The notes beneath the pieces are model-generated. The model worked only from the letters and a program-made list of their open reading frames with translations. It did no database searches and had not been told where the DNA came from. Positions 1 through 41,597 of a stretch of DNA of 41,597 bases are shown one piece after another. The first letter of the stretch is position 1. Every line of letters starts with the position of its first letter. The position numbers were made by a program, and so were the translations under genes. Source of the DNA: a virus (lineage: Duplodnaviria; Heunggongvirae; Uroviricota; Caudoviricetes); the IMG/VR virus record IMGVR_UViG_640753023_000007. The stretch is one strand, 5' to 3'.

Positions 1-1143
1 CTATGCTGTTTTGATATCTACGATAATCCAGTCTTTACCACGATCATCATTGTATCGGTCGGTCATTTTTCTGGATTTATGGCCTAACAACTTTTGCGTA
101 TCCAGACCCTGTTCCCGATATAACCGTTCTGACAGAGATCGCTGCTCATGAAATGTGGGCGCAGTTCCTTGCTCCCATTTTATGCCACATTTTTCCCGGG
201 CCTTTTTAAAAGCCGTTGTCAGAGTATTCGCAGAAACCTGGTCTCCTCTGTTTGCTTGAGAGGTAGTGTGACGGTAATGGACCAGATATTTACTAACAAC
301 AGCATCCCTGCACTGAGATATAACTTCACGAAGGGTAATATTCAGAGCATCGCATTTCAGGTTAAGCGGAATAGCAAGTTTTGAACCGGTTTTTTCCTGA
401 GTAATGTGCAACATGTCGTCCCATATATCAGAGAATTTCAAATTGCAGATATCGCCTAAACGTTGTCCAGTAACAAGAGCAAGTAGCATGCCGCATTTTA
501 AATAGGGCTGCCGTCTGCTTACGCTGTCAAATATTGCCTGCCATTCGGGCAGTGACAATCTTTGGCGGTTTACTCGATTTCGTGGTTGTTTTGTTGCCTG
601 CGCTGGGTTAAATCCTGGCGGAACATGTCCTGCGTGTTGTGCTTCTTTGAAGACGTCGATCAACACCATTCTCACGACTTGCGCCATCCTGTTATGACCT
701 TCAGCCTTTACAGCATCAATTATTTCGGCAATATCAAGTGCGGTAATATCCTTGAGGTGTTGCATTCCACAATGCTCACGGAAAAGACGAATGGGTTTGC
801 CTTTTTGCCGATAGGAGTTGGGTCTTAGTTCATTATGTTGCAGCCTGTCCTCTTGGATAGAAATATATTTATCAAGCCATTCTGTCACCGTAATGTCTGA
901 GCGCCTGCCTTTCATTCTTTCCAGACGCTCATTGACGCTTAATATTTGTCTGGTACGTTGTTCAGCAATAATGGTATTTGCTTCAGTAGCAACTTGTTTT
1001 GCTTCATTCTCATCAGTTCCTAAGCTATGAAAACGACCGGATAGTGGATGTTTGTATTGCCAATATACCTTTCCGGTTCGCTTATCTAATTTGCAATATA
1101 AATTGGGTATAGAGATTTTGTGAGATCGGGGTCTAGCAGCCAT
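1..1143 (-). CDS. int: Tyrosine integrase (lambda Int family, divergent from lambda Int itself)
   Basis: 380-aa minus-strand ORF whose stop codon is at window positions 1-3; C-terminal region carries tyrosine-recombinase-like segments (TFHEQRSLSERLY, LLGHKSRKMTDRY) alignable to lambda Int; overlaps the upstream xis-like ORF as in lambda. Confidence 0.9.
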   Translation of the reverse strand: MAARPRSHKISIPNLYCKLDKRTGKVYWQYKHPLSGRFHSLGTDENEAKQVATEANTIIAEQRTRQILSVNERLERMKGRRSDITVTEWLDKYISIQEDRLQHNELRPNSYRQKGKPIRLFREHCGMQHLKDITALDIAEIIDAVKAEGHNRMAQVVRMVLIDVFKEAQHAGHVPPGFNPAQATKQPRNRVNRQRLSLPEWQAIFDSVSRRQPYLKCGMLLALVTGQRLGDICNLKFSDIWDDMLHITQEKTGSKLAIPLNLKCDALNITLREVISQCRDAVVSKYLVHYRHTTSQANRGDQVSANTLTTAFKKAREKCGIKWEQGTAPTFHEQRSLSERLYREQGLDTQKLLGHKSRKMTDRYNDDRGKDWIIVDIKTA

Positions 1144-35413: not shown

Positions 35414-38400
35414 ATGGGTAAAGGCAGCAGTAAGGGGCATACCCCGCGCGAAGCGAAGGACAACCTGAAATCATCCCAGATGCTGAGCGTGATAGACGCC
35501 ATCAGCGAAGGGCCGGTTGAAGGTCCGGTGGATGGATTAAAAAGCGTGCTGCTGAACAGTACGCCGGTGCTGGACAGTGAGGGGAATACCAATATATTCG
35601 GCGTCACGGTGGTGTTCCGGGCCGGTGAGCAGGAGCAGACTCCGCCGGAGGGATTTGAATCCTCCGGCTCCGAGACGGTGCTCGGTACAGAAGTGAAATA
35701 TGACACGCCGATCACCCGGACCATCACGTCGGCAAACATTGACCGTCTGCGTTTTACTTTCGGCGTGCAGGCACTGGTGGAAACCACCTCAAAGGGGGAC
35801 AGGAATCCATCGGAAGTCCGCCTGCTGGTTCAGATTCAACGTAACGGTGGCTGGGTGACGGAAAAAGACATCACCATTAAGGGCAAAACCACGTCGCAGT
35901 ATCTGGCCTCGGTGGTGGTGGATAACCTGCCGCCGCGCCCGTTTAATATCCGGATGCGCAGGATGACGCCGGACAGCACCACAGACCAGTTGCAGAACAA
36001 AACGCTCTGGTCGTCATACACCGAAATCATCGATGTGAAACAGTGCTACCCGAACACGGCACTGGTCGGCGTACAGGTGGACTCGGAGCAGTTCGGCAGC
36101 CAGCAGGTGAGCCGTAATTATCATCTTCGCGGGCGCATTCTGCAGGTGCCGTCGAACTATAACCCGCAGACGCGGCAATACAGCGGTATCTGGGACGGAA
36201 CGTTTAAGCCAGCATACAGCAACAACATGGCCTGGTGTCTGTGGGATATGCTGACCCATCCGCGCTACGGCATGGGGAAACGTCTTGGTGCGGCAGATGT
36301 GGATAAATGGGCGCTGTATGTCATCGGCCAGAATTGCGACCAGTCAGTGCCGGACGGCTTTGGCGGCACGGAGCCGCGCATCACCTGTAATGCGTACCTG
36401 ACCACACAGCGCAAGGCGTGGGATGTGCTCAGTGATTTTTGCTCGGCGATGCGCTGTATGCCGGTATGGAACGGGCAGACGCTGACATTCGTGCAGGACC
36501 GACCGTCGGATAAGGTGTGGACCTATAACCGCAGTAATGTGGTGATGCCGGATGATGGCGCGCCGTTCCGCTACAGCTTCAGCGCCCTGAAAGACCGCCA
36601 TAATGCCGTTGAGGTGAACTGGATTGACCCGGATAACGGCTGGGAGACGGCGACAGAGCTTGTGGAGGACACGCAGGCCATTGCCCGTTACGGTCGTAAC
36701 GTCACGAAGATGGATGCCTTTGGCTGTACCAGCCGGGGGCAGGCACACCGCGCCGGGCTGTGGCTGATTAAAACGGAGCTGCTGGAAACGCAGACCGTGG
36801 ACTTCAGCGTGGGTGCAGAAGGGCTTCGCCATGTACCGGGTGATGTCATTGAAATCTGTGATGATGACTATGCGGGGATCAGCATCGGCGGGCGCGTGCT
36901 GGCGGTGAACAACCAGACGCGGACACTGACGCTCGACCGTGAAATCACGCTGCCATCCTCCGGCACCACGCTGATAAGCCTGGCTGACGGACAGGGGAAT
37001 CCGGTCAGCGTGGAGGTCCAGTCCGTCACCGACGGCGTGAAGGTAAAAGTGAGCCGTGTTCCTGACGGCGTTGCAGAATACAGCGTGTGGGGGCTGAAGT
37101 TGCCAACGTTGCGCCAGCGCCTGTTCCGCTGTGTGAGTATCCGTGAGAACGATGACGGCACGTATGCCATCACTGCCGTGCAGCATGTACCGGAAAAAGA
37201 GGCCATCGTGGATAACGGGGCGCACTTTGACGGCGACCAGAGCGGCACGGTGAATGGTGTCACGCCGCCAGCGGTGCAGCACCTGACTGCCGAAGTCACC
37301 GCAGACAGCGGGGAATATCAGGTGCTGGCGCGCTGGGACACGCCGAAGGTGGTGAAGGGGGTGAGCTTTATGCTTCGCCTGACCGTGGCAGCGGATGACG
37401 GCAGTGAGCGGCTGGTCAGCACGGCCCGGACGACGGAAACCACATACCGCTTCAGGCAACTGGCGCTGGGGAACTACAGGCTGACAGTCCGGGCGGTAAA
37501 TGCGTGGGGGCAGCAGGGCGATCCGGCATCGGTATCGTTCCGGATTGCCGCACCGGCAGCGCCGTCGCAGATTGAGCTGACACCGGGGTATTTTCAGATA
37601 ACCGCCACGCCGCATCTTGCGGTTTATGATCCGACGGTACAGTTTGAGTTCTGGTTCTCGGAAAAGCGGATTGCGGATATCAGGCAGGTTGAAACCACAG
37701 CACGCTATCTTGGCACGGCGCTGTACTGGATAGCCGCCAGTATCAATATCAAACCGGGCCATGATTATTATTTTTACATCCGCAGTGTGAACACCGTTGG
37801 CAAATCGGCATTTGTGGAGGCTGTTGGCCAGCCGAGTGATGATGCATCCGGCTATCTGAATTTTTTCAAAGGAGAGATAGGGAAAACCCATCTGGCTCAG
37901 GAGTTGTGGACGCAGATTGATAACGGTCAGCTTGCGCCTGACCTGGCTGAAATCAGGACGTCCATTACGGGTGTCAGCAATGAAATCACGCAGACCGTCA
38001 ATAAGAAACTGGAAGACCAGAGTGCAGCGATCCAGCAGATACAGAAGGTTCAGGTTGATACAAATAATAACCTGAACAGCATGTGGGCTGTGAAGCTGCA
38101 GCAGATGCAGGACGGACGCCTTTATATCGCGGGTATTGGTGCCGGTGTTGAGAATACTCCCTGACGGTATGCAGAGTCAGGTGCTGCTGGCGGCGGACAG
38201 GATTGCGATGATTAATCCTGCGAATGGCAACACAAAGCCGATGTTTGTTGGGCAGGGCGATCAGATATTCATGAACGAAGTGTTCCTGAAATATCTGACG
38301 GCTCCCACCATTACCAGCGGTGGCAATCCCCCAACGTTTTCACTGACACCTGATGGTCGACTTTCTGCGAAAAATGCGGATATCAGCGGTAACGTGAACG

Positions 38401-38897
38401 CGAACTCCGGGACGCTCAACAACGTCACGATTAATCAGAACTGTCGGATTCTGGGAAAACTGTCAGCTAACCAGATTGAAGGTGATATTGTCAAAACGGT
38501 GGGAAAAGCCTTTCCGAGAAATGGCAGTTATGCCAGCGGTACAATAACGGTCACTGTGTACGATGACCAGGCTTTTGACCGTCAGATAGTAGTCCCCCCC
38601 GTTCTGTTTCGTGGGGGTAAGCATGAAAACTTCAACAGCAACAACCAACAGTCATACTGGTATTCAACCTGTAAGCTGCAGGTACTGAAGAACGGACAGG
38701 AAATCTTTCAGCAACCCGCGACGGATGTCAGCAGGGTATTTTCATCAGTCATTGATATGCCTGCCGGACACGGCCATGTCACCCTGACTTTCAATGTTTC
38801 TTCATATGGTGCTAATAACTGGACGCCAACGACCAGTATCAGCGACCTTCTTGTTGTTGTGATGAAGAAATCTACAGCCGGTATCAGTATCAGTTGA
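35414..38897 (+). pseudogene. J: Tail tip / host specificity protein J, split by an apparent +1 frameshift at 38159-38161
   Basis: Frame A ORF 35414-38164 ends ...[10 protein letters not shown] then TGA; the protein continues in another frame as [23 protein letters not shown]... to 38897; an extra C in the CCC run at 38159-38161 explains the shift. Confidence 0.8.
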
Positions 38898-38915: not shown

Positions 38916-38944
38916 GGGCGCCAGAAATGGCGCCTTTTTTATTT
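38916..38944 (+). terminator. Intrinsic terminator after J
   Basis: Stem GGCGCC-(AGAAAT)-GGCGCC followed by TTTTTTATTT, about 20 nt after the J stop. Confidence 0.65.
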
Positions 38945-38955
38945 GTGGAGTGAAT

Positions 38956-41016
38956 ATGGCAGTACAGATTTCAGGCGTGCTGAAAGACGGTGCAGGAAAA
39001 CCGATACAGAACTGCACCATTCAGCTCAAAGCAAAACGTAACAGCACCACGGTTGTGGTGAACACGGTGGCCTCAGAAAATCCGGATGAAGCCGGACGTT
39101 ACAGCATGGATGTCGAGTATGGCCAGTACAGCGTTATCCTGCTGGTTGAAGGTTTTCCGCCTTCACATGCCGGGGCCATCACCGTGTATGAGGATTCTAA
39201 GCCGGGGACATTGAATGATTTTCTGGGCGCTGCAACAGAAGATGATGTTCGTCCGGAGGCACTGTATCGTTTTGAAAAGATGGTGGAAGAGGTGGCACGC
39301 AACGCTGAAGCCGCCTCTCAGAGCGCAGCGGCAGCAAAGAAATCAGAAACAGCAGCGGCATCGTCCAGGAATGCGGCGAAAACATCAGAGACGAATGCAG
39401 GTAACAGCGCGAAAGCGGCAGCTTCTTCAAAAACAGCCGCACAAAACGCAGCAACAGCGGCAGAACGTTCAGAGACAAATGCCCGTGCGTCAGAAGAAGC
39501 CTCCGCAGACAGTGAAGAGGCTTCCCGCCGTAATGCAGAGTCAGCCGCTGAAAATGCCGGAGTCGCCACCACAAAAGCGCGGGAGGCCGCAGCAGACGCA
39601 ACAAAGGCCGGGCAGAAAAAGGATGAGGCTCTGTCGGCAGCGACACGGGCTGAAAAGGCGGCAGACCGCGCAGAAGTCGCAGCGGAAGTGACTGCAGAGC
39701 CCTATGCGAATATAGTGCCGCCGCTGCCTGATGTGTGGATACCGTTTAACGATTCACTGGATATGATTGCGGGTTTTTCTCCGGGCTATAAAAAAATAGC
39801 TATTGGTGACGATGTGGTTCAGGTCGCCAGTGATAAACAGGTTAATTTCAGTCGCGCATCAACGGCAACATATATCAACAAATCTGGCGAACTGAAAACG
39901 GCGGAAATTAATGAGCCGCGATTTGAGTGTGATGGCCTGCTTATTGAGGGACAAAGAACGAACTACATGCTCAATTCGGAAAGTCCAGCCAGCTGGGGGA
40001 AGTCATCAAACATGGATGTGCCCGAAACCGGGACAGATAGTTTTGGTTTTACTTATGGAAAGTTTGTCTGCAACGATTCTCTGGTTGGGCAAACTTCGGC
40101 TATTAATATGGCATCAATTGCTGCAACAAAGTCAGTTGATGTCTCAGGCGATAACAAGTACGTGACAACCTCATGCCGTTTTAAAACAGAACGACAGGTA
40201 AGGTTACGTATACGGTTTGATAAGTATGATGGTAGTGCAACAACTTTTCTTGGCGATGCGTACATTGATACGCAAACGCTTGAAATTAATATGACAGGTG
40301 GGGCTGCCGGCAGAATTACGGCACGAGTCAGGAAGGATAAGACCACAGGCTGGATTTTTGCAGAGGCAACGATTCAGGCAATTGATGGTGAGTTAAAAAT
40401 AGGCTCTCAGATACAGTATTCTCCTGAGCGGGGTGGGGCAACAGTATCTGGTGACTATATTTATCTTGCCACCCCACAAGTAGAGAATGGGCCGTGTGTA
40501 TCATCATTTATTATTTCAGGAGGCAGCGCAACGACAAGAGCCAGTGATTTGGTTAGTATCCCCACCAGAAATAATCTTTATAAGTTACCATTTACTTTTT
40601 TACTTGAGATTCATAAAAACTGGGATATTGCACCAAACGCCGCACCCCGCGTGTGGGATATAGCAGCAGCCAATACCGGGCAATCAGCAATTGCAGCAAT
40701 CAACAGAGGTAGTGGTAAGTTATATATGAGTCTGTCAAACCCTTCAGGCTTGTATGTTAATAGCGCAGCGACAGATGTATTTGCAGAGAAAACCACATTT
40801 GGATGTATTGCAAAAGCTGATGGTCACTTTCATGTGGTGACAAATGGTAAAGCGGTTAATGAAGTTTATTGTGAATATAATGGTGTGACCGCTGATAAAA
40901 ATATCCGATTTGGAGGGCAGACGAATACTGGAGAACGACATCTGTTTGGCCATATTCGCAATTTCCGCATATGGCATAAAGAATTAAATGACAGGCAATT
41001 AAAAGAGGTCGTATGA
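38956..41016 (+). CDS. stf: Side tail fibre protein (Stf-like)
   Basis: Track ORF 38950-41016 starts with GTG; ATG at 38956 preceded by GGAG; N-terminal 120 aa match lambda Stf (AVQISGVLKDGAGKPIQNCTIQLKAKRNSTTVVVN), followed by an Ala/Ser/Thr-rich low-complexity segment and an AT-rich C-terminal domain. Confidence 0.85.
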   Translation: MAVQISGVLKDGAGKPIQNCTIQLKAKRNSTTVVVNTVASENPDEAGRYSMDVEYGQYSVILLVEGFPPSHAGAITVYEDSKPGTLNDFLGAATEDDVRPEALYRFEKMVEEVARNAEAASQSAAAAKKSETAAASSRNAAKTSETNAGNSAKAAASSKTAAQNAATAAERSETNARASEEASADSEEASRRNAESAAENAGVATTKAREAAADATKAGQKKDEALSAATRAEKAADRAEVAAEVTAEPYANIVPPLPDVWIPFNDSLDMIAGFSPGYKKIAIGDDVVQVASDKQVNFSRASTATYINKSGELKTAEINEPRFECDGLLIEGQRTNYMLNSESPASWGKSSNMDVPETGTDSFGFTYGKFVCNDSLVGQTSAINMASIAATKSVDVSGDNKYVTTSCRFKTERQVRLRIRFDKYDGSATTFLGDAYIDTQTLEINMTGGAAGRITARVRKDKTTGWIFAEATIQAIDGELKIGSQIQYSPERGGATVSGDYIYLATPQVENGPCVSSFIISGGSATTRASDLVSIPTRNNLYKLPFTFLLEIHKNWDIAPNAAPRVWDIAAANTGQSAIAAINRGSGKLYMSLSNPSGLYVNSAATDVFAEKTTFGCIAKADGHFHVVTNGKAVNEVYCEYNGVTADKNIRFGGQTNTGERHLFGHIRNFRIWHKELNDRQLKEVV

Positions 41017-41291
41017 AAGATTTAACTTTGAAGTTTCATGACAAACTGCAGTTTAAGGCCTTCCTGTCATCTCTTGACTGGGAGGAGGATGAAGACCTCC
41101 AGAATAAACTGTTAGTCGATGAAATTGGTTTCACCTACACAGAAACAGGGGTAACAGAAGAGGGAGAACCTGTCTGTGTCCGGAATGACGGTTATTTTGT
41201 CAACATTCGCATTCTTGATGACTTGTTTGATGTTTCTGTATTCTCTGATTATGTCGTGGAGCTGGAAACACCGCTTCGGGAATGGAGCTGA
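41013..41291 (+). CDS. Hypothetical acidic protein (92 aa) directly downstream of stf
   Basis: ORF with ATGA overlap on the stf stop; acidic (DWEEDEDLQNKLLVDE); occupies the slot where a tail fibre assembly gene is expected but does not resemble lambda Tfa. Confidence 0.4.
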   Translation: MKDLTLKFHDKLQFKAFLSSLDWEEDEDLQNKLLVDEIGFTYTETGVTEEGEPVCVRNDGYFVNIRILDDLFDVSVFSDYVVELETPLREWS

Positions 41292-41303
41292 AAGGAGGAA
41301 ATA

Positions 41304-41597
41304 ATGGATATAAGCCCCTTACTTCATGCGCTTTGTGCTGTGGCTGCGCAGATACTGGTTGGTCTTTTTACCGGAAACTGGGCTTACGGAGCGATAGCCG
41401 GTTGTACGTTCTTCATTGCGCGTGAACATACCCAGGCAGAATATCGCTGGATTGAAATGTTCGGGCATGGCAAGCGAATGAATATGCCGTGGTGGGGCGG
41501 TTTTGATCCGCGAGCTTGGGATGTGGCAAGCCTGATGGATTTTGCTGTGCCGGTGGTGGCGTGTCTGCTGGTCTGGCTGTTGGTTAATCGTGGGTGA
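41304..41597 (+). CDS. Hypothetical small membrane protein (97 aa)
   Basis: ORF preceded by AAGGAGG; two hydrophobic segments (LLHALCAVAAQILVGLFTGNWAYGAIAGCTFFIA and LMDFAVPVVACLLVWLLV); stop codon at the window end. Confidence 0.4.
   Translation: MDISPLLHALCAVAAQILVGLFTGNWAYGAIAGCTFFIAREHTQAEYRWIEMFGHGKRMNMPWWGGFDPRAWDVASLMDFAVPVVACLLVWLLVNRG

Follow-up and report, generated by a model that had tools for sequence, protein, structure and literature searches.

What is carried at the far end of a side tail fibre that begins like that of phage lambda, and has it come from elsewhere? The question is raised by stf, a gene near the right end of the 41,597-nucleotide stretch of virus DNA IMGVR_UViG_640753023_000007 (referred to, at its full length, as the window). 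An initial annotation, made from the letters alone, had read this gene as a side tail fibre whose C-terminal module looked like an exchanged receptor-binding domain. The gene belongs to a phage 21-like lambdoid prophage, whose side tail fibre (Stf) it specifies, and is already annotated as such. Its tip is an exchanged module, and this holds independently of base composition, because the same cassette occurs on unrelated anchors and different cores occur between the same motifs. The composite reading of the protein, as a phage 21-like Stf made up of a lambda anchor, a coiled coil and an exchangeable lectin-like tip that binds glycans, is one that we consider probable.

Over all 2067 bases the stf DNA is identical to CPT_21_22, annotated in Escherichia phage 21 as its side tail fiber gene (UMO75437.1; GenBank OL657228; genus Jouyvirus), and it is likewise 100% identical in phage ev017; the protein scores 1102 bits against PHROG 1419 ('tail protein'). 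The neighbours are shared with these phages as well (J upstream, genes for proteins of 92 and 97 residues downstream), and the window departs from phage 21 in a 1-base insertion in J and in its prophage gene order, with no difference in stf. The gene is known and ordinary, an example of tail-fibre mosaicism: it has been annotated, a curated NCBIfam model covers its middle domain and exchange of fibre tips is long established. (The announcement of the phage 21 sequence is without fibre analysis; PMC9119081.) The features of the locus are collected in Table 1.

Table 1. Features of the stf locus, in window coordinates
Feature	Position	Strand	Basis
Terminator-like hairpin and T run between J and stf	38916..38941	+	sequence reading; phage 21 annotation
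stf, side tail fibre gene (686 residues from ATG)	38956..41016	+	open reading frame (ORF), ribosome-binding site and ATG, phage 21 identity
Lambda-type N-terminal collar/attachment domain and shaft start (Pfam phage_tail_N)	38956..39348	+	PF08400, 9e7m, orf-401
Ala/Glu/Ser/Thr-rich coiled-coil shaft (~residues 102-247)	39259..39696	+	composition, periodicity, lambda similarity
Overlapping non-coding ORF	39197..39646	-	ORF list
Overlapping non-coding ORF	39318..39572	-	ORF list
Overlapping non-coding ORF	39215..39691	+ (other frame)	ORF list
Conserved junction motif VPPLPDVWIPFNDSLDM, 5' boundary of exchangeable tip cassette	39715..39765	+	start of P2-like DNA homology; motif conservation
Tip domain 1, homologous to head-spike fibre domain of RcGTA (NF048003)	39940..40542	+	NCBIfam, Rcc01080, AlphaFold2 (AF2)
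Tip domain 2, LamG/concanavalin-A-like	40633..40998	+	Laminin_G_3 (sub-threshold), fold matches, G+C at third codon positions (GC3)
Acidic protein of 92 residues (pI 4.1), candidate partner or chaperone	41013..41291	+	linkage; start overlaps stf stop
Predicted membrane protein of 97 residues	41304..41597	+	travels with cassette in E. coli

An exchanged tip on a lambda-type anchor

The protein's N-terminal part is that of lambda. Residues 1-158 are 74% identical to lambda orf-401 and near-identical up to about residue 117 (BLASTP), which agrees with the match to lambda Stf that had been seen over the first 120 residues; phage_tail_N (PF08400) scores 230 bits (cut-off 26.6; E 1e-68), and a search of PDB sequences retrieves the solved lambda Stf collar, residues 1-94 of 9e7m, at E 1.4e-49. 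In Ur-lambda, residues 1-91 of Stf constitute a collar round the gpV/gpM junction (PMC12617516). The PF08400 domain, the position of the gene 3' of J and a shaft with the heptad periodicity of a coiled coil characterize the protein as a lambda-type Stf. Ur-lambda Stf (P03764) and the window's fibre have in common the collar and the start of the coiled-coil shaft (the 74% identity just mentioned) and lie downstream of J in both genomes; a side-fibre role is presumably also shared. On the other hand, the window's fibre is without the hinge, the distal coiled coil and the gp37-like Gly/His-rich tip of its lambda counterpart, and without tfa, and stf comes directly after J, where lambda has lom in between.

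What follows the shaft is found elsewhere on other fibres. A P2-like prophage (L007), recognizable by the baseplate genes V, W, J and I upstream, has a 595-residue fibre in which the same tip is joined to a gpH-type anchor. The DNA homology of this prophage to the window extends from 39715 to 41586 at 87.8% identity, and begins exactly at residue 254, at a junction motif (Table 1) that is invariant in the lambda-like fibres compared and nearly invariant over 63 members of the family. The foreign part of the protein starts, then, at about residue 254 and not at residue 350, where the initial annotation had set its boundary. After the fibre gene, the P2-like prophage has genes for proteins of 92 and 97 residues and a 74-residue Caudo_TAP remnant of the P2-type assembly gene. 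In the T5-like phage IrisVonRoten this tip module forms the end of LtfA, with 52% identity over all 435 residues.

The family at large is distributed over anchors of different kinds: lambda-type (PF08400), P2 gpH-type (PF12571), PF03406 and CBA120-type (Tail_spike_N). In a library of 50%-cluster representatives, relatives of the tip are found in 2891 clusters at E <= 0.001 and in 459 at E <= 1e-10, and full-length matches among the 150 listed lie at the C-terminus of proteins of ~400-1500 residues. The occurrence of one tip on a P2 gpH-type anchor and on a T5-like LtfA bears out the proposal that a receptor-binding domain has been exchanged; the exchanged unit, however, also includes the coupled gene for the 92-residue protein.

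Exchange is discernible within the tip as well. Phage 21, Tritos and Lambda_2E9 have the anchor and the junction in common; domain 1 of the tip is nearly alike in phage 21 and Tritos and divergent in 2E9, and domain 2 differs in all three. The DNA breakpoints, at gene positions ~1004 and ~1573, fall within the segments EPRFE..GLLIEGQRTN and TPQVE..SSFI..TRASD, which flank the variable core of domain 1 and are conserved even in Rcc01080, the head-spike fibre of the Rhodobacter capsulatus gene transfer agent (RcGTA). To judge from the alignments, such conserved framework segments look like the crossover points between variable cores. Recombination at these two motifs, and at PPLPDVWIPF and RHLFGHIRNFRIW, would then change the specificity of the fibre.

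One further candidate for a mosaic boundary, at gene position 1934 (window ~40883) in 4C10, 4A7, 1W and 3W, was dropped: it looks like a truncation by an insertion sequence, because mobile-element genes come after the shortened fibre gene in 4C10. The stf gene appears to be struck repeatedly by insertion sequences, as in Lambda_4C10 (L004 4435-6931), with the same cut-off in 4A7, 1W and 3W. Examples in E. coli include GN02323 and FDAARGOS_1301, and the IS3-family element ISEc52 splits the stf match in some genomes.

The arrangement as a whole, a conserved anchor with an exchangeable distal part, resembles the mosaicism of P2 gpH, lambda Stf and T4 gp37. That fibre tips are exchanged between lambda-like and P2-like phages belongs to textbook knowledge, and is said to have been described by Haggard-Ljungquist and colleagues in 1992. 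The difference is that P2 gpH and gp37-type tips need a Tfa/gpG (Caudo_TAP) chaperone, whereas the tip considered here is lectin-like and is accompanied by a candidate partner of its own, the 92-residue protein. As a discovery, stf matters little, and the tip type is common; it does have some practical value, in that the residue-254 junction, taken together with the linked gene, amounts to a recipe for chimeric fibres based on lambda or P2. Engineered chimeras of lambda Stf with the tips of P2, K1F, K5 and KL106 work (PMC11338833).

Fold and probable ligand of the tip

The tip (residues 254-686) comprises a conserved neck, a domain of the beta-sandwich type with homology to the RcGTA fibre, and a LamG-type domain. 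The first of the two domains is matched by the NCBIfam domain model NF048003 ('GTA_spike_fiber') at 55.3 bits (cut-off 36), residues 331-531 aligning with profile positions 1-181 of 182; a search of PDB sequences aligns residues 299-545 with Rcc01080 (6tb9_F3) at E 1.4e-9, and the RAS.ATY and TRA.D framework motifs are among the shared features of this homologous beta-sandwich domain. Beyond that domain the proteins differ: in Rcc01080, a single chain, an N-terminal (I/L)-G repeat provides the anchorage to the pentameric capsid spike, on the head of the particle (PMC7296036), whereas Stf has a lambda tail collar at its N-terminus, no (I/L)-G anchor, and the homologous domain at the end of the fibre, with the LamG-type domain after it.

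In the second domain the tip is at its most AT-rich (GC3 0.31) and its most variable; the domain ends in a conserved RHLFGHIRNFRIWHKELNDRQ motif. Pfam Laminin_G_3 (PF13385) aligns with residues 562-683 and matches 34 of the 63 relatives at E <= 0.001 (best E 1.9e-11). The protein ends ...GERHLFGHIRNFRIWHKELNDRQLKEVV, as the initial annotation had correctly quoted, and BLASTP finds no similarity between this C-terminal part and lambda orf-314, the gp37-type Stf tip. Homology to a standard lambda/T4 gp37-type tip was looked for and not found, no gp37-like Gly/His-rich C-terminal region appeared in the comparison with orf-314, and no Tfa homologue follows the gene; the C-terminus had rightly been described as unlike the lambda Stf end.

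An all-beta AF2 model of the tip as a monomer (pLDDT 93.6, pTM 0.90) was obtained with an alignment of 63 sequences that reaches down to 23% identity and includes 50%-cluster representatives. (A first AlphaFold model, made with a shallow alignment of 15 close relatives, had a pLDDT of 51 and was discarded.) Among the fold matches of the confident model (scores in brackets) are domain 4 of the arabinanase AbnA (20.3), botulinum and tetanus toxin chains (16-19), the baseplate protein of Pseudomonas phage Pa193 (17.5), the tailspike of cyanophage Pan3 (16.0), sialic-acid-binding CBM40 (15-15.6), and pentraxins and LamG (12-14). With Foldseek, the best PDB matches are the baseplate proteins of Pa193 and E217, which align over 380-417 columns covering both halves of the tip, CBM40 domains being next; in a library of viral models, tail fibres of Escherichia phages rolling, EdH4 and NBEco002 are found at TM-scores of 0.90-0.95. 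The structure so predicted is a concanavalin-A-like beta-sandwich, and the model supports a fold like that of concanavalin-A-like lectins and carbohydrate-binding modules. A lectin-like fold had been put forward as a guess; the model, its fold matches and the Laminin_G_3 matches of the relatives bear it out as a prediction. The two halves of the tip have no similarity to each other detectable by hhalign (probability 0.1), and a tandem duplication was dropped from consideration on that account.

The working of such a fibre can be sketched by analogy. Homology to the solved lambda structure indicates that the collar domain (~residues 1-94) would dock the fibre on the tail tip and that the coiled coil (~102-247), a shorter version of the proximal shaft, would trimerize the chains; as in Ur-lambda (PMC12617516), twelve chains may form four trimeric fibres on the collar. 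The tip would bind a surface polysaccharide (O-antigen, lipopolysaccharide (LPS) or capsule) reversibly. This would hold the virion at the cell surface and speed adsorption until J reaches its receptor, an outer-membrane protein. One paper cites LamB as a receptor for phage 21 (PMC12803456). Literature searches on phage 21 Stf, LamG tail fibres and receptor prediction turned up nothing on this tip.

That the ligand of the tip is a glycan is suggested by the fold matches and by the capsule binding of Rcc01080: experiments attribute to the latter the attachment of RcGTA particles to capsule polysaccharide (PMC7296036, citing Westbye 2016; PMC10218006). The lateral fibres of small siphophages and T5-like phages are, moreover, thought or shown to target O-antigens (PMC8594841, PMC4728585), and the lambda-like Stf of Gifsy-1 binds the LPS core (PMC12312913). 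(LtfA and LtfB of DT57C were considered as proxies for O-antigen binding and rejected, since they end in autocleavable S74 chaperone domains, which is another tip type.)

Several points weigh against this composite reading. The argument for glycan binding combines a single distant homologue with a predicted fold and with what is generally known of lateral fibres. In 6TB9, Rcc01080 is resolved at residues 2-10 only, and the match is therefore one of homology and not of structure, the homologous domain being without an experimental structure. The Laminin_G_3 score of the Stf protein itself (23.9-25.1 bits) lies under the Pfam cut-off of 27.6. The AF2 model is of a single chain, so that the oligomeric arrangement of the tip is outside its reach. 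No similarity between the 92-residue protein and a known chaperone can be detected, and the protein might be an adaptor rather than a chaperone, because a second fibre gene comes after it in some phages. Finally, lambda's own Stf binds a protein, OmpC.

The last point leads to the alternative that this tip, too, binds an outer-membrane protein, its lectin-like fold serving as a scaffold for protein recognition. We think this unlikely: the only characterized homologue, Rcc01080, binds capsule polysaccharide, the best fold matches are carbohydrate-binding modules, and the tip occurs on lateral fibres of T1-like and T5-like phages, for which O-antigens are the supposed targets (PMC8594841). An enzymatic tip that would cut through surface polysaccharide in the manner of a tailspike, as a glycanase or depolymerase (concanavalin-A-like glucanase type), is highly improbable, in that binding modules outscore enzymes among the fold matches, no enzyme family of Pfam or NCBIfam matches, and a search for a GH16-type motif (ExD(x)xE) found none.

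Base composition bears on a different alternative, which concerns the origin of the tip and not its ligand. The C-terminal region had been called markedly AT-rich, and relative to its neighbours it is: the G+C content is 0.425 at 40000-41016, compared with 0.503 for the window and 0.556 for J, and GC3 falls along stf from 0.52 through 0.45, 0.43 and 0.38 to 0.31. (The G+C content of 0.59 in the shaft is an effect of Ala codons, because GC3 there is only 0.45.) This AT-richness is real within the gene and with respect to the late operon. For the prophage as a whole it is not extreme: 12% of equal-sized segments are equally AT-rich, all of them in the non-structural half, which also tells against reading foreignness into composition. 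The low G+C of the tip might, then, merely be usual for an accessory region at the right end of a lambdoid late operon, and the fibre an old resident; the downstream genes, too, are below the late-gene G+C content, and in E. coli the gene is fixed, with 99-100% identity across hundreds of genomes. That explanation is barely credible when set against the stepwise drop of GC3 within a single gene, the same cassette on unrelated anchors in P2-like and T5-like phages, and the different cores that close lambda-like relatives carry between the same conserved motifs. A lambda-anchored fibre with an exchangeable, glycan-binding tip continues to be the reading that we prefer.

The linked downstream genes

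The ATG of the gene for the 92-residue protein overlaps the stf stop codon (ATGA). Its linkage to the tip is close. A homologue with 49-100% identity begins 0-3 bases after the tip in 78 of the 79 IMG/VR loci that have room for it, and the tip at the one exception is truncated. It also follows the tip at all six distant loci, in the Enterobacteriaceae Leclercia, Silvania, Buttiauxella and Atlantibacter (HMM E 1e-11 to 1e-15), which were found by way of family members only ~25-30% identical to the window's tip. By tblastn the protein is found in 145 phage records, and adjoins a fibre gene among the matches listed; the phages concerned are lambda-like and T5-like, Drexlerviridae (tonn), Nonagvirus (JenP1) and Dhillonvirus (rolling). 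This linkage is strong evidence that the 92-residue protein works with this tip.

The protein is called hypothetical in every source and belongs to PHROG 1361, for which no function is given; searches of Pfam, NCBIfam, PADLOC and PDB sequences yield no match. A lambda-type tfa gene does not follow stf: the 92-residue protein does not align with lambda Tfa and has no Caudo_TAP (PF02413) match in Pfam. The gene linkage suggests that it most likely takes the place of lambda's Tfa as the assembly or partner protein of the tip.

In some phages the cassette is followed by more. A further gene, for a protein of 146-574 residues, comes after the 92-residue homologue in the phages Tritos, IrisVonRoten and tonn and at the loci of Leclercia and Silvania. 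(Only the Tritos and IrisVonRoten copies carry a tail-fibre annotation; MANRIDS... opens several of the products from Leclercia and Silvania, and the loci are Tritos L005 4879-6546, IrisVonRoten L095 5001-7013 and L089-L092. A gene for a PinR-type recombinase lies nearby in Tritos.) The order of these genes suggests branched or two-protein lateral fibres, with the 92-residue homologue as a possible adaptor. On the other hand, a role tied to the tip itself is favoured, because the gene is present where there is no second fibre, in phage 21 and the P2-like prophage. The lateral fibres of IrisVonRoten (Bas32) and of Drexlerviridae and Dhillonvirus (tonn, rolling, EdH4) have the same tip with the 92-residue homologue after it; they differ from that of phage 21 in anchor and virion type, and several have the second fibre gene that phage 21 is without.

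The tip moves between lambda-like, P2-like, T1-like and T5-like fibres as a cassette with the translationally coupled 92-residue protein, and in E. coli with the 97-residue membrane protein also. It is possible, and we offer it tentatively, that the 92-residue protein represents an undescribed class of tip partner (chaperone or adaptor), obligatorily coupled to the tip and replacing the Tfa type, the pair forming a portable host-range cassette. If that is true, tip and partner make up a self-contained unit that can be carried between lambda-, P2-, T1- and T5-like virions. The consistent linkage of the tip to this gene is not in the literature searched, and is a modest lead.

The 97-residue protein is less constantly associated with the tip. 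Its gene is present at 65 of 74 close loci and at none of the six distant ones; in the P2-like cassette, 77 of 98 residues are identical. Two transmembrane segments are predicted in the phage 21 record, and the protein belongs to PHROG 1443; Pfam, PHROG and NCBIfam give no informative match. In some E. coli genomes this gene is all that matches the window, beside genes for a 'tail fiber domain-containing protein', and it may accompany other fibre types too.

Gene boundaries, shaft and surroundings

The mechanical ORF extends from 38950 to 41016 on the + strand and opens at GTG, which gives 688 residues. At GGAGTGAATATG, the ribosome-binding site GGAG precedes the ATG at 38956 (MAVQISGVL..., 686 residues), which is also the start of lambda Stf and of the phage 21 annotation, and this ATG is the likely start because of the GGAG before it. 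Position 39290, from which the initial annotation had the gene begin, is internal, at about residue 112.

The shaft had been described as a repetitive, low-complexity segment rich in Ala, Ser, Thr and Glu (about 39300-39700). Its composition is indeed of that kind (37% Ala, 12% Glu, 12% Ser and 8% Thr over residues 116-247), but the repetition is compositional and heptad-based only, as TRF finds no tandem repeat in the DNA of the shaft. Residues A, V, L, I and M recur with a periodicity of 3.5, equalled in none of 2000 shuffles; the segment contains no proline; part of it is 53% identical to the lambda shaft (BLASTP); and residues 102-393 of Ur-lambda Stf form a trimeric proximal coiled coil (PMC12617516). 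Taken together, these properties make residues ~102-247 a heptad coiled coil and not meaningless low complexity. It is a version of lambda's proximal coiled coil of about half the length, and by analogy with lambda its chains would trimerize. The length of the shaft varies among relatives, that of phage Tritos being ~100 residues longer.

The GCN-rich shaft also produces the three overlapping ORFs, of 84 to 158 residues, two of them antisense and the third sense but in another frame. Over this stretch there are 0-1 stop codons in three of the five non-coding frames, and the antisense ORFs are as spurious as had been supposed. In lambda (NC_001416), the annotated antisense orf206b (L003 5148-5768, minus strand) sits at the corresponding place, inside the Ala-rich shaft region of orf-401, and is for that reason probably not a real gene. 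In the phage 21 record an antisense 'CII binding site' (ttgynnnnnnttgy) is marked within the stf shaft (L001 6492-6505, window ~39441-39454); it is a pattern match only.

The annotation of stf in bacterial genomes is divided. In E. coli ATCC 25922 (NZ_CP009072), L002 6007-8067 is the same DNA as the stf gene of the window, an intact ORF, and RefSeq/PGAP makes two features of it: a 'pseudo' 'prophage tail fiber N-terminal domain-containing protein, missing C-terminus', and a 417-residue 'phage head spike fiber domain-containing protein' with an internal Met start. The same pair of names is used in most E. coli matches. This looks like an artefact of model-driven naming, and could mislead the annotation of prophages; the second name denotes a domain and not a location in the virion. 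At a coverage of at least 80%, stf is present in 575 of 5426 complete E. coli genomes (about 10%), and some match to it, chiefly to the N-terminal part, is found in 4458.

The window has its genes in prophage order, with an ORF of 380 residues at 1..1143 (minus strand) that is taken, from its position, as the putative integrase. The last 8.6 kb are 99.4% identical to phage 21, and the start of the window has no match in the phage 21 sit region. The end of the gene for the 97-residue protein is the last base of the window, and many other IMG/VR prophage calls stop at that point. The sitABCD operon, an iron/manganese transporter on the other strand, comes next in phage 21 and in E. coli chromosomes (it adjoins the stf locus in most E. 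coli examples inspected), and the window probably cuts off this cargo.

Upstream of stf, J-type ORFs occupy 35414-38897, in the order of phage 21. J is split into ORFs 35414..38164 and 38136..38897 by an extra C (CC to CCC) at 38157-38159; phage 21 J, without it, is a single gene of 1160 residues. Searched with the 121-base stretch of J concerned, the 5426 complete E. coli genomes all give a best match of 120 bases (99.2%). The insertion is peculiar to this sequence or else a sequencing error, because no complete genome matches better. Between J and stf lies a G+C-rich hairpin with a T run (gggcgcc agaaat ggcgcc ttttttt), annotated as a terminator in phage 21. Read as such, it would make stf expression dependent on Q-mediated read-through, or lower than that of J.

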